A DNA stretch of 64,000 nucleotides from Fibrobacter sp. (GTDB lineage Bacteria > Fibrobacterota > Fibrobacteria > Fibrobacterales > Fibrobacteraceae), in the NCBI GenBank assembly GCA_017412605.1, contig JAFPWY010000007.1, forward strand, positions 180,239 to 244,238. Direction: 5' to 3'. Below the pieces are notes generated by a model that was given only the letters and a program-made list of their open reading frames with translations, was not told where the DNA came from and did not search any database. Positions 7,129 to 20,615 of this stretch are shown here, in pieces (position 1 is the first letter of the stretch; the number at the start of each line of letters is the position of its first letter). A program made the position numbers and the translations under genes.

Positions 7129-7833
7129 CTACACCTGCATGTTTTCTAGCTTCAATTTACGGCGCTGCCAGTCGGGCATACGGGTTTCCAGCAGACGATA
7201 GAACTTTTTATCGTGGTTCGGGTATTTCAGGTGACACAATTCATGCACCACAACATACTCGATGCATTCCTTCGGGGCGGCAATCAACTTTGTATTTAAG
7301 GTCAATATACCGCCTTTAGAGAGCGAACCCCAGCGGGTTTTCATGTCGCGGATCTGCAGGCGAGGAGACTTAGAAGAATGCGAAAAACGAGCCATACAAG
7401 CCAAAAAAACATTCTCGAACTGCACCTTAGCACGCTCACGCAACCATTCATCAAGAAGTTTCTTCACAGTTGCGGGGCGAACATCCGCAGAAATAACCCT
7501 AATGAACCCGCCATCGATTTTCACCAAGCGTTCTTTATCTTTTTCGATTTTTAATCGATAACGGCGCCCCAAATACAAGTGTGTCTCGCCACCAAGATAT
7601 TGCCTTGGAGGAGGCGCTTTAGGAAATTTTGCGAACCAGTCCTGCTTTTCAACAATCCACGGAGCCTTTTTCTGCACCTTCTGCGCGATTGCTTCGAGCT
7701 TCGCCCCCTGCGGAGCCCGCACCTGCACGGCACTATCGGGCATTACAGAGATTTCCAGTGTCTTGCGACGGCAAAATTCAACCTCGTATACAATCTCGCG
7801 GTCTCCATATTTAACAACGTTCAGCTCATTCAT
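7129..7833 (-). CDS. M48/YgjP-like (DUF45) zinc metallopeptidase associated with type I RM
   Basis: MKTRWGS, YVVVHELCHL (HExxH), HDKKFY. ATG at 7833 overlaps the hsdR stop. Confidence 0.9.
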   Translation of the reverse strand: MNELNVVKYGDREIVYEVEFCRRKTLEISVMPDSAVQVRAPQGAKLEAIAQKVQKKAPWIVEKQDWFAKFPKAPPPRQYLGGETHLYLGRRYRLKIEKDKERLVKIDGGFIRVISADVRPATVKKLLDEWLRERAKVQFENVFLACMARFSHSSKSPRLQIRDMKTRWGSLSKGGILTLNTKLIAAPKECIEYVVVHELCHLKYPNHDKKFYRLLETRMPDWQRRKLKLENMQV

Positions 7834-10800
7834 GCGAACGCCGCCTTGCCACATTCATGATTTTCTCTTCCAGGGAATCAATGTCCGCATTCGTCCAGTC
7901 AAAACGTTCCCGGACACAAATATCATCGAACAGGAGGTCATCTAGTTCGTTTCGCACTCTGTTTTGTGCGTCCGGATCGTTCCAGAATTGCACCTTGTGA
8001 TGTTTTTTCAGCGCTTCAATAACGAATAAGGCTGTTTCTACGGCAAGCCGTTTGGCTTCTGCCGTATCGCACTTGTTTCCATACAAGAACGCTGTCAGTG
8101 CGACACCATAGTATGCGGCGGCATCTTCGTTTTCGCTGATTTCTGCCGGAACGTCATCACGTTTCTTGCTTTTGAAATTTTCCTCCAATCCTTTCACCTT
8201 GGAGAGATATTCATCTTCCGAAATCTTACCCGCCTGGAAACTGTCGATGACATCCTGAATCATCTTCGAGAATTTCTCGTAGAAGGCGGGATCTTCTTCC
8301 ATCTTTTCGGTTGCGGTTTTCTTGAGCATGTGCGCTATTGTATCAGCACTCGCCGCCTTGCCACGAGCATCATAGCTGCCTTTATCATCACTCAATATCT
8401 GGGTAAACTTCGGATCCAAAATATTCACAGGTGCTACAGTCTGCACCACATTATCCGACTGGATGTGCGTATCGAGCAACTTCTTGATTTTCGGTTCATA
8501 CTCGCTGTAGTCCACATCGTCGGCATAGCGGTGCTTTACAGACACGCGCATGTCCGAGAACATCTTGAACTCCCTGCGAAGCCGCGTCATATCTTCAGCT
8601 GGGGTCTTTTCCAGGAACTTCTGCGACGACATCGCGATACTCAGGCACTTTCCGAAATCTCGCAGGGCCTTGTAGAAATCGTTACGGCGTTTTTCATCGG
8701 CCAAGTGGCGTTCCATCTGTTCGGGGTCAGCCTTGTTCTTGACACCCCTGAAAACGTCCCACAGATTAGAGCGCAACTGCGGCAACTTGTCCACAAGTTC
8801 CGACACATCGGTCAGCAAGCCTTCCAAATCTTCGGGGTCAAAACCTTCCAGCGCCTTGTACATCACAAGCGCCGTATCTAGGTTGTCGCGAACGTTGGCG
8901 TAATCTACGATATAACCGAAATCCTTCTTCTTGCCGTTTTCCTCAAACAAGCGATTCACGCGCGCAATCGCCTGCAACAACGTATGTTCCTTGAGCGTGC
9001 GGCAAAGATACAGAACTGTGTTGCGTTCGGCATCAAAGCCCGTCAGCAACTTGTCACAGACAATCAGGATTTCCGGCTTACCTGGGCCCTTGAAACCATC
9101 AATAATCGACTTATTATACGAATCCTCGTCGCCATAGCGATCCATCATCTTTGTCCAGAATTTCGTCACTCGGCTAGTCGGTTCTTCGCCCACTTCCGAA
9201 TAGCCTTCGCGCTCATCGGGGCCCGAAATGATGACTTCAGAACTCACATGGCCAATTTCATCCAAGAATTCATGGTACAGAATAGCCGTTTCCTTGCTCG
9301 GTGCGACAAGTTGAGCCTTGAACGGAGTATCCTTCCAGTTTGCACGGAAATGTTCACTGATGTCAAACGCACGCATATACACGACACGTTCCGCCTTGTT
9401 CAGCATCTCGGCCCGTGCATATTTCTTCTTAAGATCGGCCTTCTGCTTGTCCGAAAGACCTGCCGTAAAGCGTTCAAACCAAAGGTCAATTGCAGCCTTG
9501 TCCTGTTTGAGTTCCGCATGGCGTCCCTCGTAAAGCAAAGGCACCACGGCGCCATCTTCGTTCGCTTGCCGGATAGTGTAACTCGGCTTGAGCATCCCGC
9601 CGAACTTGCCGAAACTGTTCTTTTCCTTCTTCATTAGCGGCGTGCCCGTAAAGCCGATATAGCAGGCATTCGGAAGCATCTGTTTCATACGCGCATGCAA
9701 GCTCTTGTATTGCGTACGGTGCGCTTCGTCCACTAGCAAAAAAATGTTGTTTGATTTTTCAACGTACTGGCGTTTGTTCAGCGCCTTGTCGAACTTGTTG
9801 ATAACAGTCGTTATCACGGCAGAATTGTCCGACGCCATAAGGTTGAGCAAATTTTCGCCCGAGGTCGCCTTGATGACCTCCGCACCACAATTTTTGAAGG
9901 TGTCGCATATTTGCGAATCCAATTCCTTGCGGTCGGTAACTAACACGACTCGCGGATTTTTGATATTACAATCGGGGTCATACGTCGAATCCAGCACGAT
10001 TCCGCGAGCAAGCATCACCATCGAAAGTGATTTACCTGAGCCCTGTGTGTGCCACACCAAGCCGCCCTTGCGCTTATTTTCGTTACCAATATTCCGAATA
10101 CGTTTTAACGCCGAATGGACCACAAAGAATTGCTGGTAGCGGGCAATCTTCTTTATTCCCTCATCGAACAGGGTAAAGCGATAGGCGATTTCAAGCAGGC
10201 GTTCAGGCTTGCACAGGCAATAAATCAGCCTGTCCTGTTCCGTCACTACACGCTTTGTCTGCGGATTATTCTTACGGAACGGCGCCAGTTTCGGCACCGA
10301 GAAAATCCTATCTTCATCTTCGGCAGAGACCTTTTTGTTAATCGCAGCTTCGATTTCCTTATCCTTGATTTCAAGCTCGTGCCAAAGGCTCCAGAACTTT
10401 TCGGGAGTCCCTACGGTGGAATAAGTCGCCGCATTCATGCTCACCGACAAAAGCGCCTGGCAAAAAACGAACAATCCCGGAATATATTCGTCGCCTTGAT
10501 TGCGAATCATCTGGGAAATGCCCTGTTTGATTCCTTCTTCGGGAGACTTATTCTCGATGACTGCAAACGGGATTCCGTTCACAAACAGCACGATATCAGG
10601 GATAACACGGGCATTGGATTTCGAGCATTCCACATCAAATTCGGCAACCGCATGGAACACATTGTTCGCCGGTTCCTGCCAGTCGATATAGCGAATGTCG
10701 TAACTGCGCTTGTCGCCCTCGACAGATTCCTCTTCGGATTGCGGGAGCGTGAGCAGGTCATATATCTTTGCATTCGTACGCACCAGACCATCGTACTGCA

Positions 10801-11053
10801 TGTTCTTGAGTTTCAGGATTGCATTGCGCAAATTCTCTTCGCTAAAGTCACGACGGACACCCTTGTGCGTAAATGAGTTCAACTTACGCAACTGCGAGAG
10901 CAGAATATCTTCGAGCAACACATTGGCAAGCTTGTCCTTACGCTCCAATGTCACCTCTTCGGGCGTAAGCGGCTTGAACCCGAGATTCGCCAGCAGCCGC
11001 ATCGCCGGAATCTGCGATGTCGGAATTTCTCTGTAATCAGGCTGTTGTTGCAT
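7826..11053 (-). CDS. hsdR: type I restriction endonuclease subunit R
   Basis: PDIVLFVNGIPFAVIENK nuclease motif, WHTQGSGKS Walker A, DEAHR, GFTGTP, DKLLTGFD, LLQAIARVNR. Confidence 0.97.
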   Translation of the reverse strand: MQQQPDYREIPTSQIPAMRLLANLGFKPLTPEEVTLERKDKLANVLLEDILLSQLRKLNSFTHKGVRRDFSEENLRNAILKLKNMQYDGLVRTNAKIYDLLTLPQSEEESVEGDKRSYDIRYIDWQEPANNVFHAVAEFDVECSKSNARVIPDIVLFVNGIPFAVIENKSPEEGIKQGISQMIRNQGDEYIPGLFVFCQALLSVSMNAATYSTVGTPEKFWSLWHELEIKDKEIEAAINKKVSAEDEDRIFSVPKLAPFRKNNPQTKRVVTEQDRLIYCLCKPERLLEIAYRFTLFDEGIKKIARYQQFFVVHSALKRIRNIGNENKRKGGLVWHTQGSGKSLSMVMLARGIVLDSTYDPDCNIKNPRVVLVTDRKELDSQICDTFKNCGAEVIKATSGENLLNLMASDNSAVITTVINKFDKALNKRQYVEKSNNIFLLVDEAHRTQYKSLHARMKQMLPNACYIGFTGTPLMKKEKNSFGKFGGMLKPSYTIRQANEDGAVVPLLYEGRHAELKQDKAAIDLWFERFTAGLSDKQKADLKKKYARAEMLNKAERVVYMRAFDISEHFRANWKDTPFKAQLVAPSKETAILYHEFLDEIGHVSSEVIISGPDEREGYSEVGEEPTSRVTKFWTKMMDRYGDEDSYNKSIIDGFKGPGKPEILIVCDKLLTGFDAERNTVLYLCRTLKEHTLLQAIARVNRLFEENGKKKDFGYIVDYANVRDNLDTALVMYKALEGFDPEDLEGLLTDVSELVDKLPQLRSNLWDVFRGVKNKADPEQMERHLADEKRRNDFYKALRDFGKCLSIAMSSQKFLEKTPAEDMTRLRREFKMFSDMRVSVKHRYADDVDYSEYEPKIKKLLDTHIQSDNVVQTVAPVNILDPKFTQILSDDKGSYDARGKAASADTIAHMLKKTATEKMEEDPAFYEKFSKMIQDVIDSFQAGKISEDEYLSKVKGLEENFKSKKRDDVPAEISENEDAAAYYGVALTAFLYGNKCDTAEAKRLAVETALFVIEALKKHHKVQFWNDPDAQNRVRNELDDLLFDDICVRERFDWTNADIDSLEEKIMNVARRRSHE

Positions 11054-11091: not shown

Positions 11092-11162
11092 TTTTCAATG
11101 TCACAATTGGAGATGCAGTCTTGAAATTGTCAAAATCTTTTCTTCTTACAATCTTTTGAAAT

Positions 11163-12428
11163 TCAAATAGATCCATCTACGTCATCATTATTATTTGTAT
11201 CTTCATCATTCGCGCCTAATATTTCAGGATAACCTAAATCTCTTTGCATTTCCAAATCATCAAATCCATGTCTTGAATTCTTTAGTTTTGATTCATAAGA
11301 TGGAACGACAAGAGAATTAGTTAGGCGTTCTCCTAAATGATTTAAAAAACCAAGTCTTTCTGTACTGGGTGAGCATTTTGAAAATTCACTTATTCCTGAC
11401 CATGCTTCATATTCAGGCATTCTTATTGATTGTATAATATCTATAGCAGGTTTAAATGAATCCGTTAATCCCCTTACAGCTGAGAACGAGTCTAATACTC
11501 TTTCTGGGAAAATAGACGCTTTTAATGAAAGTCCAACCTCATCAATTGTTCTTTCCGCTGTATTTTTCTTTTCTTGTTCTGTGATATCAACTTTGTCTAA
11601 TTTAGCGATCGCATCGTTGAGAATTTTTTGCATTTCCTCGCATTTTTTCAAACATTCTTCACATTCATTTTGGGGAATAATTCGATTATGTGCAACATCA
11701 CACCGATATTCATATAATTTTTCCCAATTAGACTTAAATTTTTCTGAATCGCAATCAACGAGGACGTTGAAATATCTATCCCAATTGTTTTTTGGAATAA
11801 ACAATCTTAATTCCTTCTTTTCTTCTTCCGTAATCTCTTTATCGATACATTTTTTTAATTCGTCAACTATGCTACCACTCTTATCAGCATAAGGGATTGT
11901 TAGAAAATAAGAGAGTTGAATGAAATCAAGATGATAAAGACAATCATTATTCCATTTATATTCACCTTTTACAGTATTTTTTACATCTTGAGGTGTTGCT
12001 TCATACCATTTCATTCCCAAAGTTTCAAGCATAAATTTGGAAACCAATTTACGGATAGAATTTTCTAATGTATAAATATTTGAGTACAGTTTTTCGGAAC
12101 GATTTTTAGCAAAGTCATTTCGAAGTTCAAGAATTGCAATATTTTTCTGATTTTCATCTTTAATATTGCTAATTACCTGACGAAACATTTTTAATAATTT
12201 TGTGGGCTCGTTATCCGAATCAGATGAAAAAGTAATAGCATAAACAACACCTTCGGAATCTTTAGTCTTCTTTTCCGATATTTTGATCTTACTTTGTTCA
12301 TTTTCATAAGATAATGTGTCTTTGACTAAAGATAAGTCTGATGCGTCCAAGAACGACCTCAATTTCGCCTTGCTTTTGCATGTAACACACTTAGAGCTTA
12401 CTGAAAAAATGTATTCGATTTCTTTCAT
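11163..12428 (-). CDS. HEPN-domain protein (putative RNase effector)
   Basis: IYTLENSIRKLV..DFIQL..NWDRYF..WEKLYEYRCDVAHN: R-x4-H motif in a helical domain; AT-rich. Confidence 0.7.
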   Translation of the reverse strand: MKEIEYIFSVSSKCVTCKSKAKLRSFLDASDLSLVKDTLSYENEQSKIKISEKKTKDSEGVVYAITFSSDSDNEPTKLLKMFRQVISNIKDENQKNIAILELRNDFAKNRSEKLYSNIYTLENSIRKLVSKFMLETLGMKWYEATPQDVKNTVKGEYKWNNDCLYHLDFIQLSYFLTIPYADKSGSIVDELKKCIDKEITEEEKKELRLFIPKNNWDRYFNVLVDCDSEKFKSNWEKLYEYRCDVAHNRIIPQNECEECLKKCEEMQKILNDAIAKLDKVDITEQEKKNTAERTIDEVGLSLKASIFPERVLDSFSAVRGLTDSFKPAIDIIQSIRMPEYEAWSGISEFSKCSPSTERLGFLNHLGERLTNSLVVPSYESKLKNSRHGFDDLEMQRDLGYPEILGANDEDTNNNDDVDGSI

Positions 12429-12441
12429 GTCACACCTGCCT

Positions 12442-12522
12442 TTATTTTTCTCAACACTGTTCGGTAAGAAATTTTTGCATCAAACTTTGTTTCTGCCTTT
12501 TGAAATTCATAGATTGTTGCAT
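12442..12522 (-). pseudogene. decayed copy of the hsdS 3' end (81 bp)
   Basis: Translates MQQSMNFKRQKQSLMQKFLTEQC*EK* versus HsdS C-terminus MQQLENYKKQKQGLMQKLLTGQWRVK*; 61/81 nt identical to 14068-14148 by manual gap-free alignment. Confidence 0.85.
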
Positions 12523-13296: not shown

Positions 13297-14058
13297 TTAA
13301 AACACTGTTTTTATAATAGAATCAACACCTTTTATCATCTCTTCAACATCTTCTTGCGTTGGCTCCCGTTTTGAATCATGATCGCACAAATTTCTGATAT
13401 CTCCAAGATGCTGAATTTTCCGAAAAATGATTAAATCGTACACATTTCCTGCCTTTAAAGCATCATTTAAAGGTGATATTGTATCTTTTTTGCAGGTCAA
13501 ATTATGATTCTTTAAAACTTGCGATAAATGTCTTTCTAAAACAACTCCAGCCATAGCTCCCGCTGCTCGCATAAACTTATTTTTGTTCAAAAGTCTCGCT
13601 GCATCAAGTTCATTGTCAAACAAGTCTGCTTGAACAAACTGCTGAATATCAAACAAGGAACTTTCAAATCGAGATTGAACTGATTTTAAAATATATAGCT
13701 GTTGCTTGAATTTCGGTATCGCATTTTTTTCTTCAAAAGAATCGTAAGGGAATAATTCAGGATTCTCTAGAGCATCAAGATAGTCTTTTATTTGGTAATT
13801 TTGAGAAGTTATTTTCTTTCTGTTTGAAGGAACTTCATAATATGATTTAAAATCATTCAAACGATCTGGTAATAATTGTTTAATGACAATCAATGATTCA
13901 GAATACCATGGCTGATATCCTGTACAAAAACAAAGGTCGTTTTTATTTAGCTCTCTGCGATCAATAGGTTCACATTCATTACAAATCGCTTTATACAGAG
14001 CGTCACCCAGCGAAATCAATCGGCTTAAATCGCTTTTGTACTTTTCTAAATTTGTCAT
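13297..14058 (-). CDS. HEPN-like (DUF4145-like) protein
   Basis: C-terminal AAGAMAGVVLERHL..LNDALK..LGDIRNLCDH (R-x4-H). Confidence 0.65.
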   Translation of the reverse strand: MTNLEKYKSDLSRLISLGDALYKAICNECEPIDRRELNKNDLCFCTGYQPWYSESLIVIKQLLPDRLNDFKSYYEVPSNRKKITSQNYQIKDYLDALENPELFPYDSFEEKNAIPKFKQQLYILKSVQSRFESSLFDIQQFVQADLFDNELDAARLLNKNKFMRAAGAMAGVVLERHLSQVLKNHNLTCKKDTISPLNDALKAGNVYDLIIFRKIQHLGDIRNLCDHDSKREPTQEDVEEMIKGVDSIIKTVF

Positions 14059-14067
14059 ACAATTCCC

Positions 14068-15231
14068 TTATTTAACTCGCCATTGCCCGGTGAGGAGTTT
14101 TTGCATCAAGCCTTGTTTCTGCTTTTTGTAATTTTCAAGTTGCTGCATGAGAAGCGTACTTTCTTGATTCATTGTATTTAAAACAGAGACAATTTTCTGT
14201 TGTTTCTTTAAATCAAACTTTGGAATTTTGATTTTACATAAATCACCAAATCCAACTGTTTCACGAACGCTTCCTTGAGCACTATTTTTTATGCGTTGTT
14301 TAGCTTCGCTAGAATTAAGCCAATGTAAAAGAAAATCAGAATCAAGTTGCTTTTGATCTCCGATTTCAAATACAGTATACATTGGACTGATTACAGCCTC
14401 TTTCCAATCGTTTAATCGTGCTATAGACCCAACATTTATTCTTGACGGATTGTATGCATATTGTCCTAAACGAACAATCTTGTAATTAGATAGGTTTTCG
14501 CTAGCAACTTTTCTATCAAATTGTTCTTCTGGCAAGACAAAACCCTTGCTGTTACTAACGCTTAATACCTGTTGAATTTTTTCATCTTTATTTCTTTCTG
14601 AAACTTCCGTCAAAAATGTTCCTAATTCAGCATATGCATCACTCGTTATTGAAGTGGCTAAGAAACAAGCATAGGAATTTTCTTTCGCTTCGACGAGTTT
14701 TTCCATTTTTTCAATGGCGGAGTCCCAGACTGAAAGCGTCGCCGCAATCTTCTTCTGTTCTTCAATCGGAGGCAAATCTAATGGTATCTTTTTGATAATT
14801 TCTGCACTTAAATTCTTTTGCCCTCCATCATTGCTCAAATTTCGAATATTTTCATAATGGAATAAAAAATATTGAAACAAATAAGGAGTCAACACTTCGT
14901 CTTCTTTCAAATGAAATGCTGCACAAGCTTGATTGATTGTCGCATCTATATCAAGAATAGCAACTTGTCCCCTAGTTTTTCCCTGCCCATACATAGCCAT
15001 CAACAATGTTCCTTTTGGAACAATCTTTGCAGAAGACTCATTTACACCTAATTCCGTAATATACTCATCTACCTGATCTTTTGAAATATGCCCGTTTTGA
15101 ATTTGAGCGGTTTTCACCCAAGGAATATTGCCATTCCAATATTCAGATTGCGTCCTCAAAGGTGTACCACCAGATGTCACTTTGGCGACATCCCCCAATT
15201 TCACTTTTTTCCATCCATTAGGCAGCATCAT
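14068..15231 (-). CDS. hsdS: type I RM specificity subunit S (two TRDs)
   Basis: LPNGWKKVKLGDV, SGGTP, IPWVKT, LPPIEEQKKIA, second TRD, KQKQGLMQKLLTG terminus. Confidence 0.95.
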   Translation of the reverse strand: MMLPNGWKKVKLGDVAKVTSGGTPLRTQSEYWNGNIPWVKTAQIQNGHISKDQVDEYITELGVNESSAKIVPKGTLLMAMYGQGKTRGQVAILDIDATINQACAAFHLKEDEVLTPYLFQYFLFHYENIRNLSNDGGQKNLSAEIIKKIPLDLPPIEEQKKIAATLSVWDSAIEKMEKLVEAKENSYACFLATSITSDAYAELGTFLTEVSERNKDEKIQQVLSVSNSKGFVLPEEQFDRKVASENLSNYKIVRLGQYAYNPSRINVGSIARLNDWKEAVISPMYTVFEIGDQKQLDSDFLLHWLNSSEAKQRIKNSAQGSVRETVGFGDLCKIKIPKFDLKKQQKIVSVLNTMNQESTLLMQQLENYKKQKQGLMQKLLTGQWRVK

Positions 15232-17290
15232 TCTTTACTCCTAAAATCTTATTTATAGTTCTAATCAAATAATGAAGTGAGAAAACACTTGGTGACAATG
15301 GGCGCTCAGCCTCATTGAACTCCCTTTTTGCCTCGTTCAATAGCCGTTCTAAGAATTCTTTTTCTTTCTCTAAACGGTTATGGTTTTCATATCTCTTTTC
15401 AATCGCTTTTCTCAATGTGCTATTTCGATCTCGCTTAACGCCTTTGTATACCTCGCAAAATTTAACAACATCAACATCTGAAAAACAAAAGACATCAGAT
15501 TCGCCATATTGCATTGATATTTGAGAACAAGCAAGATTAAACCCATCGTAATCATCTCCCAACAAACGTTGGCAAAAAGCGTTTATTGCAGCGTCCCGAC
15601 GTTCACTCGTTTTATTTTTCAAAATATTACATAAAAAGGCAAGAAATTGATCATTCTTTTCCTCATATACCTTATAAGTATCTAAAAAAGGTAGTCGTTC
15701 TTTCCAATCATCCATTCGTTCATCGTCAAGTTTATCCTGTATTGATTTAACGTATGAAATCATCTTTTCTTCAAATTCTTCAGCAGTAAATTCAAATGCA
15801 TTATTCTTAGCATACCAATATATTCTATAGAACAAATCCATTATAAGAGACGGACTTTTTAAAGTTTTTGTATTTTCTATACAATTATTAAAAATTTTGA
15901 GCGCTTTATTTCCTTCGTCATCATCCAAAAAAGACCACTCAAGCATTTTCTTTAAATACGCTTCTTCTTCTCCGCCATACCATATTGAAGTCTTTATAAG
16001 GTCATTAACTTTTTTAAAATCAACTTTGTTTTCAAGCAACCATTTTTTCCATATTTGCAACCATTCATTGGCAAACGAAGACTCGTGTAAGGAAGTAAAT
16101 TTTTCCACTCCTCCAAATAATTTCTGAAAATTTTCTTCTTCATCTGGTCTCTGATTGCAAGGAGCAATAGTCCATGTAACAGCAGTTGCTTTTTCATCTA
16201 GAGGATTTGTTTGTAGTTGTAATTTCCCCTTTTTCTGGTGACGTTCCAAAGCGTCATCCATAGCCTGAGTCATGACATTTGAAATTTTATTCGGCTTGAG
16301 TAAACCTAAATAATAAGCATATTGGTACACAAAAAAATCTGCAACTAGCAATTCATTGCATTTTCTTTTTTCTAAGTTCTCCTTCGAAATGTTTTTTATA
16401 AATCTTTGAAAATCGATTAGGGAGTGTTTTAGTGAACGAAAATTCGGCACACCGGAAGCATCAAATACATTAGCAACAATCCCTCGATAGTCCTTTAAGA
16501 AATTATATGCATCATTACCTAGAATGTGGTGTTCTTCGTTAAACCAACAGTTCCAAACATCATCAAATGTCGTTTGTATTTGGAATTCTTTACCTATTAC
16601 CTTTTCCTTAGTACTTGACAAATGGTGAAGAGTCGATTTATCTTCTTGACATTTTTGTGCTTCTTCCCATCTGTCCTTATCTGCAAGCAGAATACAAGGA
16701 ACATGCAAGTGTTCCACATAGTCGTTCAGATACCCCAATAATTCAGGAAGGGGCATGTCAGCTCGTTCAACATCGTCAAAAACGACAACGAGTTTTTTAT
16801 AGTTTTTTTTATCAATTCTGATTTTCTTTAGAAAATCATTTGAAAAAAACTTTAATGATTCCCCAACAGCTCTTCCCGTTGCGATTGCGGCTGGAAGTAC
16901 TACAGATGCCGCTGGCGCACCAGCTGCGATTGCTGCCGTCCCTATCTTTGCGCCAACAGCAACTACAGCAAGATTTCCTACCAGCGACACTGCATTAGGA
17001 TGACAAAATAACTTTCTTAGCCCTAACTTTGGGCGAAAAACCTCTTGAATTTTTTTGTCAATTTCATCGCGATTTTTCAGTCCAAATAAACTTACATACA
17101 CAACCGTATATTTTACGCAGTCTGTTAGCCAATCTTTTATTTCTTTTCTATCGCCACCAAGATACTGCCTAATGAAATATGTCTTGCCAGAGCCCCAACA
17201 GCCCGTAATCAACACAGCGTAATCGGGAGACTGCTCCTCATTCAGGTAATTATTCAGGAATTCTTTAATGTGCTTGTTGCTATTCTCCAT
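15218..17290 (-). CDS. KAP-family P-loop NTPase
   Basis: YAVLITGCWGSGKTYF (Walker A), YVSLFGL, LVVVFDDVER (Walker B), KEKVIG; hydrophobic Gly/Ala insert within the NTPase domain. ATG at 17290 preferred over TTG at 17302. Confidence 0.85.
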   Translation of the reverse strand: MENSNKHIKEFLNNYLNEEQSPDYAVLITGCWGSGKTYFIRQYLGGDRKEIKDWLTDCVKYTVVYVSLFGLKNRDEIDKKIQEVFRPKLGLRKLFCHPNAVSLVGNLAVVAVGAKIGTAAIAAGAPAASVVLPAAIATGRAVGESLKFFSNDFLKKIRIDKKNYKKLVVVFDDVERADMPLPELLGYLNDYVEHLHVPCILLADKDRWEEAQKCQEDKSTLHHLSSTKEKVIGKEFQIQTTFDDVWNCWFNEEHHILGNDAYNFLKDYRGIVANVFDASGVPNFRSLKHSLIDFQRFIKNISKENLEKRKCNELLVADFFVYQYAYYLGLLKPNKISNVMTQAMDDALERHQKKGKLQLQTNPLDEKATAVTWTIAPCNQRPDEEENFQKLFGGVEKFTSLHESSFANEWLQIWKKWLLENKVDFKKVNDLIKTSIWYGGEEEAYLKKMLEWSFLDDDEGNKALKIFNNCIENTKTLKSPSLIMDLFYRIYWYAKNNAFEFTAEEFEEKMISYVKSIQDKLDDERMDDWKERLPFLDTYKVYEEKNDQFLAFLCNILKNKTSERRDAAINAFCQRLLGDDYDGFNLACSQISMQYGESDVFCFSDVDVVKFCEVYKGVKRDRNSTLRKAIEKRYENHNRLEKEKEFLERLLNEAKREFNEAERPLSPSVFSLHYLIRTINKILGVKNDAA

Positions 17291-19037
17291 CTCCGCCCCC
17301 AAATAAGTCTAGCGTTTCCGAATCTTTTTTCTTTTTCGTGCTGTTAGTAACTTTCTTAACCGATGTCTTGTTGGCGTCAACAAAACGTCCTTTCTCGTGC
17401 ACCCAGTGCCCATTCTTCGATGCACCTTCCCATACAAAGCCTAACTTTTGGAGGTCTCGCAGGATTGTCAATTTTGTTACGCCGAACATAGTCGCCAAGG
17501 CATCTTTTGATATCATAGAATTCACGCTAACAACCTGCAAAACCTTTTCGGTTCTTGATACATTCTTTTCGTTTTGAGTATCATTTAGGGCATCATTTTG
17601 ACTATCACTTTGGGTATCATTTTGAGATACATTTTGGGTATCAAACCAATATCCCTTTTTAGGCGCACCTTTCCAAACATAGCCCATTTTCTTCAGATAG
17701 CGACGAACCGTAATTTCGCTTAATTCCAGTGTTTCTGCTATGGTTTTTACAGAAACACTGTTGCTTTGAACAACAAGTTCTTTTATACGGAACGCCCGCT
17801 TTTGACTATCATTTTGGCTATCACTTTGACTATCATTTTGAGGTGCATTTTGGGTAACAATTTTGCCATTCAACTTGTTCAGCGGGAAGGTCACAACCGT
17901 ATATCCAGTCTGCTCACTCCAGAAGGGTTGGGGTGAATTTTCCGCCTTGCAAGCATCCATTATGCGCTTGATACCCGAGCCCCATTTTTCCAAATATGTA
18001 GTTTGGTATAAGACGTTCGCAAGGACTTCGTTTCGCGGGAACGATTGGTGCGACCGCTTGATAGTTTTCGGAGTCAGTTCATGTGGCAACAAACCGGGGC
18101 TTTCAATTTCTATACGGTCATCGTAAATGGCGATGCCGATAGAGCACTGGTGAATGTCGTAATCCCTATGGCAAAGGGCATTGATTAGAGCCTCACGCAA
18201 CGCAGCTACCGGAACATCGAGGTGTTCTTCCCTTTTGAGCCCCTTGATTTCACCGCTCAGGGACAGGTGCTTGAAGAAGAAGCCCATACCCGCATCCAGC
18301 AAATCAAAGAAATTGCCGTGGGCCTGCTGGTTATCGATAAAGTAGTTCTTATCGGTCCCCCGGAAGCGGGCCATCCGAAGTAGATATTCAAACGAGAACT
18401 TCTTTGAAAAAAGAAACACCGCGGCGTTCCTCACATTATCGCCATCCAACAGGTTCCATTTTTTCAGTATTACTTTAATCGGCTCATTGAGCGACCCCAC
18501 CGGAATTCGTTTTTCTTCGACGCCGAGACGCACAACCCCACGAATCGTGCCGGCGTTAAGATCCTTTATGCTATACCCTTCGGCAGTCCTCATTTCCCAT
18601 GAATACTGGTGGGGCATATTAATGCGAATCCGCTCATCAAACATATCCCTGGGCATCGCCTTGGTGACGCTCTCCAGTCTATAATATGGCTTCCCGTGGA
18701 ATGTGTATGGCTTTTGCCCATAGACCCACGGATTGAACCTCAGCACGATTACCTGGAGGTTCGGCTTGCCGGAAATATCTACATATTCAATGACGGGCGT
18801 AACTGCAGGTTCGATCCCCGCCAAAGCCTGCGCGATATCGCGGCGGGTAGATTCTGAAACAATCTGCCCGACAATATTCAAGGAGGGTGTGACACCGAAA
18901 ACGAGAACTCCGCCATCGGAATTCAAAAAGGCACATGCCGTATGCATGCCTTCACGAAGTTCACCGGTAGATTTCTTCAACTCGACATTCTTCGTCTCGT
19001 CTTTAGAAATCAGTTTTTTGAGTTCATCCAGTGTCAT
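17280..19037 (-). CDS. Schlafen/AlbA_2 + HATPase_c_4-type domain + two tandem winged HTH modules
   Basis: ETKNVELKKS, CAFLNSDGGVLVFGV, ALREALINALCHRDY, YDDRIEIESPG, RNEVLANVL, EKWGSGIKRI; two C-terminal HTH-wing repeats ending GYVWKG..GYW and GFVWEG..GHW. Confidence 0.85.
   Translation of the reverse strand: MTLDELKKLISKDETKNVELKKSTGELREGMHTACAFLNSDGGVLVFGVTPSLNIVGQIVSESTRRDIAQALAGIEPAVTPVIEYVDISGKPNLQVIVLRFNPWVYGQKPYTFHGKPYYRLESVTKAMPRDMFDERIRINMPHQYSWEMRTAEGYSIKDLNAGTIRGVVRLGVEEKRIPVGSLNEPIKVILKKWNLLDGDNVRNAAVFLFSKKFSFEYLLRMARFRGTDKNYFIDNQQAHGNFFDLLDAGMGFFFKHLSLSGEIKGLKREEHLDVPVAALREALINALCHRDYDIHQCSIGIAIYDDRIEIESPGLLPHELTPKTIKRSHQSFPRNEVLANVLYQTTYLEKWGSGIKRIMDACKAENSPQPFWSEQTGYTVVTFPLNKLNGKIVTQNAPQNDSQSDSQNDSQKRAFRIKELVVQSNSVSVKTIAETLELSEITVRRYLKKMGYVWKGAPKKGYWFDTQNVSQNDTQSDSQNDALNDTQNEKNVSRTEKVLQVVSVNSMISKDALATMFGVTKLTILRDLQKLGFVWEGASKNGHWVHEKGRFVDANKTSVKKVTNSTKKKKDSETLDLFGGGDGE
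17572..17639 (-). repeat. 12-bp coding minisatellite (QND/QSD tetrapeptides), block 2
   Basis: ACCCAAAATGTA TCTCAAAATGAT ACCCAAAGTGAT AGTCAAAATGAT GCCCTAAATGAT ACTCAAAA on the minus strand. Confidence 0.85.
17800..17855 (-). repeat. 12-bp coding minisatellite (QND/QSD tetrapeptides), block 1
   Basis: ACCCAAAATGCA CCTCAAAATGAT AGTCAAAGTGAT AGCCAAAATGAT AGTCAAAA on the minus strand. Confidence 0.85.
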
Positions 19038-19046
19038 TGAATAGCC

Positions 19047-20615
19047 TTACCCCCGCTTTATCTCCTTCAGTTTCTGGGCCATCTGCTTGCGGACTTCGGC
19101 AAGTTCCTTTTCGAGGCGGTCGATATCCTTCTGCACGGCATCCACATCGATAGGAGCTTCTTCTTCGAAGGTGTCCACATAGCGCGGGATGTTCAGGTTG
19201 AATTCATTGCCCGCAATTTCGTCGAAAGAGGCGACATGGGCGTACTTGTCCACATTCTTGCGCTTCTTGTAGGTGTTCACAATCTTCGAGATGTTCTCTT
19301 CGGAGAGCGAATTCTGCTTTTTGCCCTGCACAAATTCACGGCTTGCGTCAATGAACAGCACGTCCTTGCGCTTTGCGTTCTTGCCGCCGATTTCACGGCT
19401 GCGGTCGAATACCAGAATCGCCACGGGAATGCTCGTGGTCGGGAAAAGGTTTTCGGGGAGGCCGATTACCGCATCCAGCAGGTTTTCGCGAATCATCGCT
19501 TCGCGGATTTTGCCTTCGGAAGAACCGCGGAACAGCACGCCGTGAGGCACCACGACAACGACACGGCCTTCGCCCGCAAGGCTCGTCTCGACCATATGCG
19601 TAATGAAGGCCCAGTCACCCTTGCTTTTGGGCGGAATACCACGGAAAAAGCGCTTGTAGGGGTCACTTTCGGCATTTTCAGCGCCCCATTTGTCGAGGCT
19701 GAAAGGCGGATTCGCAACCACCACATTGAATTTCATCAACTTGTCTTTTTCGACAAGCATCGGGCTGTTGAGCGTATCGCCCCATTCAATGCGGGCGCTA
19801 TCGGTGCTGTGCAAGAACATATTCATGCGGCAAAGTGCCCATGTGCTGCCGTTTGATTCCTGACCAAACAAGGCGTAGTTGCCGCTCGGCACCTGCTTCG
19901 CACCCTGCAAAAGCAAACCACCCGCACCACATGTCGGGTCGCAAATCTTGTCGCCATCCTTCGGGGCCGCAAGTTTCGCCACGAGTTCGGTAACAACAAA
20001 CGGTGTAAAGAATTCACCCGCCTTCTTGCCCGCCTCGGCACCGAAACGTTCCAACAGATACATGTAGGTGTTGCCGATGATGTCTTCGGAAACGCGACTC
20101 GGCGACATGTCGAGTTCTTCTTTGTGGAAGTCTTCGAGCAGCGTGCGCAGACGACGGTTGCGGTCCTTCGTCTTGCCGAGATTCGGCTCGGAATTGAAGT
20201 CAATATTGCGGAACACGCCTTCAAGCTTGAGCCTGTTCTGCGTTTCAATTTTGTCGAGAACGATGTTGATTAAATCGCCGATGTTATCTGCAGTGCGGCG
20301 TTCGTAAAGGCTGTAATAGTCCGCGACAAACTTGTCGATGACCTTGCCTTTCTCGTTCTTGATTTCTACCATCGGGAGTACAAAACGTTCGCGCTCCAGT
20401 TTGCGGAGGATTCGCGCCTCGTCGCCGCCGTATTGTTTGCCATAAGCGTCGTAATGGTCGCGCCAAACATCCGACATATACTTCAAGAACAGCATCACCA
20501 GAATGTAGTCCTTGTACTGCGCCGGATCAACCGCCCCGCGGAAGGTATCGCACGCGGCCCAGGCGGCAGCGTTGATGGCATCTTGCTTGATTTTTTCGCT
20601 TTTCACTTCACTCAT
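19047..20615 (-). CDS. hsdM: type I RM methyltransferase subunit M (m6A)
   Basis: LRGAVD-like FRGAVD, GEFFTP, DPTCGAGG (motif I), VVANPPF (motif IV), GVLFRG. Confidence 0.97.
   Translation of the reverse strand: MSEVKSEKIKQDAINAAAWAACDTFRGAVDPAQYKDYILVMLFLKYMSDVWRDHYDAYGKQYGGDEARILRKLERERFVLPMVEIKNEKGKVIDKFVADYYSLYERRTADNIGDLINIVLDKIETQNRLKLEGVFRNIDFNSEPNLGKTKDRNRRLRTLLEDFHKEELDMSPSRVSEDIIGNTYMYLLERFGAEAGKKAGEFFTPFVVTELVAKLAAPKDGDKICDPTCGAGGLLLQGAKQVPSGNYALFGQESNGSTWALCRMNMFLHSTDSARIEWGDTLNSPMLVEKDKLMKFNVVVANPPFSLDKWGAENAESDPYKRFFRGIPPKSKGDWAFITHMVETSLAGEGRVVVVVPHGVLFRGSSEGKIREAMIRENLLDAVIGLPENLFPTTSIPVAILVFDRSREIGGKNAKRKDVLFIDASREFVQGKKQNSLSEENISKIVNTYKKRKNVDKYAHVASFDEIAGNEFNLNIPRYVDTFEEEAPIDVDAVQKDIDRLEKELAEVRKQMAQKLKEIKRG

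Follow-up and report, generated by a model that had tools for sequence, protein, structure and literature searches.

A gene of 421 codons plus stop at positions 11163..12428 on the minus strand of a 64,000-nucleotide stretch of Fibrobacter sp. DNA (hereafter the window) probably specifies an endoribonuclease of HEPN type from the Abi2/Swt1 clade that is self-contained and serves, as a single gene, in abortive infection or back-up defence. The protein is read as autonomous, no neighbouring gene being conserved beside it across the family, and as one that would spread horizontally and often land in defence loci; its distribution is patchy and its G+C content low.

The 421-aa open reading frame claimed in a preliminary description of this DNA was confirmed from the open reading frames of the window; it has 33% G+C and possesses homologues, 27 of which were retrieved by a word-indexed search with the target. 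The public gene call is 395 aa long, 26 codons short at the N-terminus, and misses the stretch at 12350-12428 (-) of the window. The first 26 residues (MKEIEYIFSVSSKC..C; MKEIEYIF...C..C) are kept in relatives, indicating that the 421-aa reading is correct, and relative P0023 from locus L004, called as 364 aa, is also N-terminally short, with the same extension present in the L004 DNA. Comparison with five close relatives gave dN/dS values of 0.07-0.13 for residues 1-105 and 0.08-0.11 for residues 106-295. The gene is real, and strongly purifying selection acts on residues 1-295 (dN/dS ~0.1).

The protein had been described as an N-terminal domain followed by a helical core and a long C-terminal tail, and this layout is borne out by an AlphaFold2 model of the whole protein, built on a 17-sequence alignment; a second model, restricted to the core (residues 100-300) and built from 42 sequences, has a pLDDT of 85 and a pTM of 0.79. 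The N-terminal alpha/beta domain (residues 1-105; 12114..12428, minus strand) is modelled as strand-helix-3 strands-helix-strand with a pLDDT of about 80-90 over about residues 1-104, and has no match in Pfam, NCBIfam or PADLOC. A Foldseek search of the whole model against the PDB returned only weak matches, which fall on this domain, the best being small ferredoxin-like folds (ACT, PII, ribosomal S6 and the N-terminal domain of MJ1480, PDB 3mgj), with target TM-scores up to 0.5-0.56 and E-values of 0.09-0.3. The modelled similarity hints at a ferredoxin-like fold and is a fold-level clue only, and the domain is proposed to serve as a sensor or dimerisation domain.

The Swt1-like HEPN core (residues 106-283; 11580..12113, minus strand) consists of a long helix, an insert of ~90 residues and two further long helices. 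The first long helix carries E122-N123-x2-R126 (12051..12065, minus strand), in which E122 and R126 are invariant in the alignments; the insert carries a family-specific motif, P212-K-N-N-W-D-R-Y-F220 (11769..11795, minus strand), in which N215, W216 and F220 are invariant; and the catalytic-type motif R242-C-D-V-A246-H247-N248 (11685..11705, minus strand) spans a helix end and the start of the next loop, with R242 encoded by cgg at 11705-11703 and H247 by cat at 11690-11688. Invariant or near-invariant positions of the core comprise Y115, E122, N123, R126, M133, G138 and D168-F-I170, as well as P212, N215-W-D-R-Y-F220, W235, Y239, R242, A246, H247 and N248. The C-terminal tail (residues 284-421; 11166..11579, minus strand) was modelled with a pLDDT <50.

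The proposal that the core is a HEPN domain is supported by its motif, its helix topology and its sequence profile, although the target itself falls under the cut-off of the Pfam HEPN_Swt1 model. R242, A246 and H247 of the previously noted R-x4-H motif are invariant in alignments of 17, 32 and 42 homologues, with identity down to ~25%, N248 is at least 90% conserved in these alignments, and RxxxAH[NS] is present in 169 of the 174 relatives retrieved. In both AlphaFold2 models, A246 closes the helix formed by residues 228-246, the loop behind it contains H247 and N248, and residues 253-279 make up the following helix. This placement agrees with the description of canonical HEPN domains, in which R-x4-6-H straddles the boundary between a helix and the loop that follows it (PMC3710099). 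HEPN_Swt1 (PF18731) scores 19.2 bits on the target (E 0.0016), below its gathering cut-off of 27.5 bits, yet it matches 25 of 32 family members at E<=0.01 (best E 5.7e-7), placing the family at the edge of the Pfam model. Abi_2 (AbiD/AbiF) has no match at E<=0.1 in the target and none among the 32 relatives. RefSeq names relatives either 'Swt1 family HEPN domain-containing protein' or 'HEPN domain-containing protein'. Two close relatives, P0013 and P0014, are named 'ribosomal protein S24E' by JGI, a name for which no Pfam support appeared and which looks like a spurious transfer.

Structure comparison was less informative. Foldseek searches with the whole and core models against the PDB and BFVD gave nothing at E <0.08 and no HEPN entry in the top 50, the matches of the core model being just long-helix noise, and a search of PDB sequences with two family profiles found nothing relevant. 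The lack of a HEPN structure among these matches and the sub-threshold Pfam score would fit a protein that is not a defence nuclease at all, being instead an addiction-type toxin that stabilises its cargo, an RNA-binding or regulatory protein with a HEPN-like motif, or a non-HEPN helical protein; the HEPN domains of eukaryotic Swt1 are regarded as RNA binders without activity (PMC3710099), and many relatives of the target lie outside defence islands. However, the R, H and N of the motif are conserved together with E122 and R126 across sequences of ~25% identity, which argues for catalysis, no antitoxin-like partner is kept among the distant loci, and a patchy, low-GC distribution with embedding in R-M loci is what defence cargo typically shows; these alternatives are considered quite unlikely.

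The tail differs from the remainder of the protein in its rate of change. Among ten close relatives, identity is 89% in the N-terminal domain and 89.5% in the core but 38.5% in the tail (minimum 17%), and the tail (~135 residues, modelled at low confidence) evolves ~10x faster than the rest, with dN/dS values of 0.3-0.76 that may be inflated by alignment error. In the pair formed with the copy in locus L001, dS is 0.59 for the tail and 0.58 for the N-terminal domain, indicating that the tail is fast-evolving there and is not a foreign replacement. The tail keeps its length and open frame among close relatives. Tail types go with particular downstream genes: the type shared by the window and L001 is followed by hsdR or ORF6N, that of L042 by RhuM, and that of L002, L043 and L045 by a 334-aa RNSFVH protein and an AlbA_2 protein. 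The 334-aa protein (L002:11293-12297 in L002, where it overlaps the stop codon of the gene) has a weak HEPN_Apea match and is always followed by the AlbA_2 protein, a pair that resembles the 253-aa RNLCDH and AlbA_2 pair of the window.

In part of the distant relatives, the position of the tail is occupied by a second, HepT-like HEPN domain. A second motif, RNxxVH, occurs ~120 residues past the first in 59 of 169 motif-bearing sequences, or ~40% of distant representatives, with carriers including P0042, P0058, P0088, P0104, P0116 and about 55 others. The second domain matches the Pfam HepT-like model and passes its cut-off in P0042, and alignment by hhalign of a 149-sequence profile of the core with a 57-sequence profile of the second domain placed RxxxAH in register with RNxxVH (probability 64%, pairwise E 6.6e-5). 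Some two-HEPN relatives carry extra C-terminal domains, namely DUF1508 in P0088 and DUF5655 in another member.

An acidic C-terminus acting as an autoinhibitory nucleic-acid mimic was considered for the window copy, whose tail end has a net charge of -7 over 20 residues, and was dropped because mean charge is alike in single-HEPN (-1.5) and two-HEPN (-1.6) proteins. A broader scheme is that of a sensor-RNase family, in which the conserved, ferredoxin-like N-terminal domain would sense an infection cue, the C-terminal module would swap between a second HEPN domain and a fast-evolving tail, and the Fibrobacter tail would be autoinhibitory or a decoy. The two-HEPN members would then be intramolecular, Cas13-like nucleases, and the Fibrobacter tail, with dN/dS up to 0.76 and preserved length, would reflect an arms race with phage proteins. 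Such a scheme, which if true would define an undescribed, widespread single-chain immune family, is considered unlikely in this full form.

The minus strand of the window between 7.1 and 20.6 kb is a single co-oriented run of genes, with hsdM (19047-20615) first and a gene for a YgjP-like metallopeptidase last. After hsdM, the run includes genes for an AlbA_2/HATPase_c_4/HTH protein and a KAP NTPase (PADLOC PDC-S49; 15218-17302), the active hsdS belonging to this type I R-M operon (14068..15231), a gene for a 253-aa protein with an RNLCDH motif (13297-14058), a gene for a 253-aa AlbA_2/Schlafen protein, the target and, immediately downstream of it, hsdR (7826..11053), which starts 109 nt beyond the target. 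No terminator was predicted on the coding strand from hsdS to hsdR. G+C content is 33-37% over 11-18 kb, against ~49-53% for hsdR and hsdM and 55-60% for the chromosome on either side, which marks the target as part of a foreign AT-rich cargo within the operon. The gene does occupy the hsdS-hsdR slot to which it had been assigned, with two cargo genes between hsdS and itself, but only within the Fibrobacter clade, and not across the family, is it tied to this slot.

Directly upstream of the start codon lies a decayed hsdS 3' end of 84 nt (12439..12522, minus strand) that is 75% identical to 14065-14148 and whose alignment to the hsdS ends of relatives runs across the stop codon and a purine-rich spacer. 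This relic marks a recombination join, by which a unit consisting of an hsdS 3' end and the gene came to lie behind another set of hsdS and cargo. A 13-nt exact direct repeat, CTTTTGAAATTCA, flanks the target at 11153-11165, where it overlaps the stop codon, and at 12497-12509, within the relic. The repeat was considered as an insertion footprint, but it is probably fortuitous, given its overlap with the relic and the several other repeats of 12-13 nt within the same AT-rich 4.3 kb.

In every Fibrobacter-type locus from metagenomes and MAGs (L001-L004, L013 and L042-L046), 11-14 nt separate the gene from the hsdS in front of it, and this arrangement reaches a 50%-identical copy beside a 50%-identical hsdM. 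Among same-phylum genomes, 2 of 296 carry the gene, both of the same genus. The gap between hsdM and hsdS constitutes a second variable slot (L001, L002, L042, L043 and L045), whose cargo includes a DEAD helicase-phosphoribosyltransferase fusion with DprA-like and DUF3800 proteins, a SMODS and S_4TM pair, a CdiA_C-like toxin domain and ORF6N/Bro-N/KilA-N proteins. A KAP NTPase adjoins the gene in two distant relatives, at L023 (1854-3764) and L033 (4071-7598), and belongs to the same operon in the window and L043-L046, an association that is recurrent and not constant.

The constancy of the position behind hsdS, which holds in every close relative (at least 10 loci, to 50% identity), is what would be expected of a PrrC-like guard, an RNase silenced by HsdMSR that fires, without an ATPase, when a phage anti-restriction protein disables the complex. 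A dead hsdS 3' end still precedes the window copy, a separate hsdM-hsdS embedding exists in a Fulvivirga locus (L030), and the slot is the same as that of PrrC (bioRxiv 10.1101/2024.01.29.577857). Against a guard function, only one of 24 distant loci is fully embedded in a type I R-M system, with one further partial case, and others lie beside housekeeping genes. Moreover, tail type is independent of HsdR similarity, the window copy sharing 91% identity in HsdR but 23% in the tail with L002, and 82% in HsdR but 40% in the tail with L001. The conserved hsdS 3' end could plausibly have anchored recombination as well, which would account for the linkage with no functional tie, and a guard of the complex is accordingly unlikely.

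The neighbours between hsdS and the target raise a further alternative, in which the HEPN protein would pair in trans with an RNxxxH neighbour (253-aa or 334-aa), possibly along with an AlbA_2/Schlafen protein, and so rebuild the two-HEPN arrangement found in one chain of distant relatives. An RNxxxH protein and an AlbA_2 protein accompany the gene in the window, L002, L003 and L043-L046, and ~40% of distant relatives have an RNxxVH second HEPN domain fused to the first. The profile of this second domain aligns by hhalign with the 253-aa RNLCDH protein of the window at a probability of 74% and more weakly, at 28%, with the 334-aa RNSFVH protein, but such similarity is expected between any two HepT-type HEPN domains. 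Furthermore, both neighbours are missing beside the gene in L001 and L042, and L004 has AlbA_2 alone, the dead hsdS end lies between the pair and the gene in the window and so points to separate acquisition, and single-HEPN distant relatives stand alone. A multi-gene module is therefore very unlikely.

The wider family is large. An exhaustive HMMER search of 1.84 billion cluster representatives gave 747 matches at E<=0.001, of which 525 reach E<=1e-10; the alignments almost all span residues 1 to ~295. The family thus comprises at least 747 clusters at 50% identity. When GTDB species genomes were scanned with a pattern based on a narrower alignment, 29 loci were found in Bacteroidota, Cyanobacteria, Pseudomonadota, Bacillota, Chloroflexota, Myxococcota, Patescibacteria, Verrucomicrobiota and others. 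A profile word-search aimed at distant relatives returned the close clade only. No family member was found in phage records, and two were found in plasmid records.

The label 'stand-alone' given to the protein in the preliminary description holds at the level of the family, in that no partner gene is kept beside 24 distant homologues and Pfam and PADLOC tallies of 75 neighbours of these 24 loci revealed no conserved partner. A nucleotidyltransferase, the antitoxin of HepT-MntA (HEPN-MNT) systems, where a minimal form is encoded adjacent to the toxin, was found neither in the operon of the target nor among the top families of the 75 neighbours. The Fulvivirga MAG locus (L030, 5823-13515), which contains hsdM, a DUF559 (Vsr-like) endonuclease gene, the gene itself, hsdS and hsdR in that order, is the one distant locus that lies fully within a type I R-M system and is an independent embedding at a different position in a type I operon. 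Several distant loci lie near Mokosh genes or R-M genes of type I, II or III, and others adjoin genes for DnaE, ribonucleotide reductase, HisRS or an S46 peptidase. With housekeeping genes next to many of the distant relatives, the enrichment in defence islands is only partial.

The target shares several features with the anticodon nucleases PrrC, of the EcoprrI locus, and RloC: it is co-oriented within the hsdS-hsdR slot of a type I R-M operon, is a predicted RNase with a motif of the R-x4-H type and is presumed to act as a second line of defence. Unlike these proteins, which possess an ABC/Rad50-like ATPase, the target has an unrelated ~105-residue alpha/beta N-terminal domain; it gave no P-loop or ABC-ATPase match in Pfam, NCBIfam or PADLOC and is neither PrrC nor RloC, just as had been stated. 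Its HEPN clade is also different, being Swt1-like, and most members of its family lie outside R-M loci, whereas PrrC is almost exclusively R-M-embedded (bioRxiv 10.1101/2024.01.29.577857). The suggestion that the target is a differently activated RNase effector is retained as a prediction.

Members of the Abi2/Swt1 HEPN clade (AbiD/AbiF) are R-M-embedded and predicted to be active back-up suicide RNases (Anantharaman et al. 2013, PMC3710099). HEPN_Swt1 is the best profile match of the target, which places it near this clade, although the missing Abi_2 match and the sub-threshold HEPN_Swt1 score set it apart. The architectures found in PMC3710099 do not include the N-terminal domain, the NNWDRYF insert or the optional second HepT-like domain. 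HEC-08 (a DUF3644 HEPN domain with zinc ribbons), which is also ATPase-less, was validated via mutation of the motif histidine (bioRxiv 10.1101/2024.01.29.577857). Both HEC-08 and ApeA, another validated ATPase-less HEPN defence made of one protein, resemble the target in combining a HEPN and an accessory domain in one polypeptide with no antitoxin and in having been found by embedding in defence systems. However, they belong to other HEPN families, the target having no DUF3644 or HEPN_Apea match, and the accessory domain of the target is different and located on the N-terminal side.

The family is not represented at full length in PADLOC v2.0, where its sole partial model is PDC-M34B, which matches residues 84-166 of the target, including the first HEPN helix (E 4e-9). 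The PDC-M34 candidate comprises two genes, and its B protein is ~150-190 aa long. The 83-residue match misses the R-x4-H region of the target, and no neighbour of the target matches PDC-M34A. Literature searches on PDC-M34 and on bacterial Swt1-family HEPN proteins returned nothing past the 2013 survey and no paper on the target family. A weak Csm6-like match (E 0.033) covers the motif region in PADLOC. Csm6 and Csx1 also place an alpha/beta N-terminal domain ahead of a dimerising HEPN domain, and Cas13, like the two-HEPN relatives of the target, has two HEPN domains per chain. The N-terminal domain of the target, however, is not CARF/Rossmann-like and its context lacks CRISPR or cyclic-oligonucleotide genes, and the resemblance to Csm6, Csx1 and Cas13 is a functional analogy only.

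HEPN RNases generally require two R-x4-H motifs. For the preferred reading, an autonomous HEPN-type defence effector, two copies of the target would dimerise through their HEPN domains to form a composite R-x4-H active site, and relatives with a fused HepT-like HEPN domain would hold both motifs within a single chain. The N-terminal alpha/beta domain may hold the nuclease off until an infection cue is sensed, upon which the activated nuclease would cut cellular or phage RNA and phage growth would stop. The tail may be no more than a spacer that is tolerated, or else a segment for regulation or interaction that changes rapidly, and the place right behind hsdS may provide co-transcription and co-transfer with the R-M system as opposed to mechanistic dependence on it. 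Genes embedded in type I R-M loci are mostly defence genes (Payne et al. 2024, bioRxiv 10.1101/2024.01.29.577857).

A HEPN RNase nested in a restriction operon is a recognised theme, represented by PrrC, AbiD/F, the 2013 survey and guilt-by-embedding, and so the general idea is not new. What is new is a large, defined family with a three-part anatomy and an uncatalogued N-terminal domain, to which are added invariant candidate catalytic residues and the contrast between two-HEPN members and those with a single HEPN domain plus tail. Since PADLOC v2.0 holds no full-length model of it, the family is a concrete candidate for defence-system catalogues, and it is useful for asking how an ATPase-less HEPN nuclease stays off.
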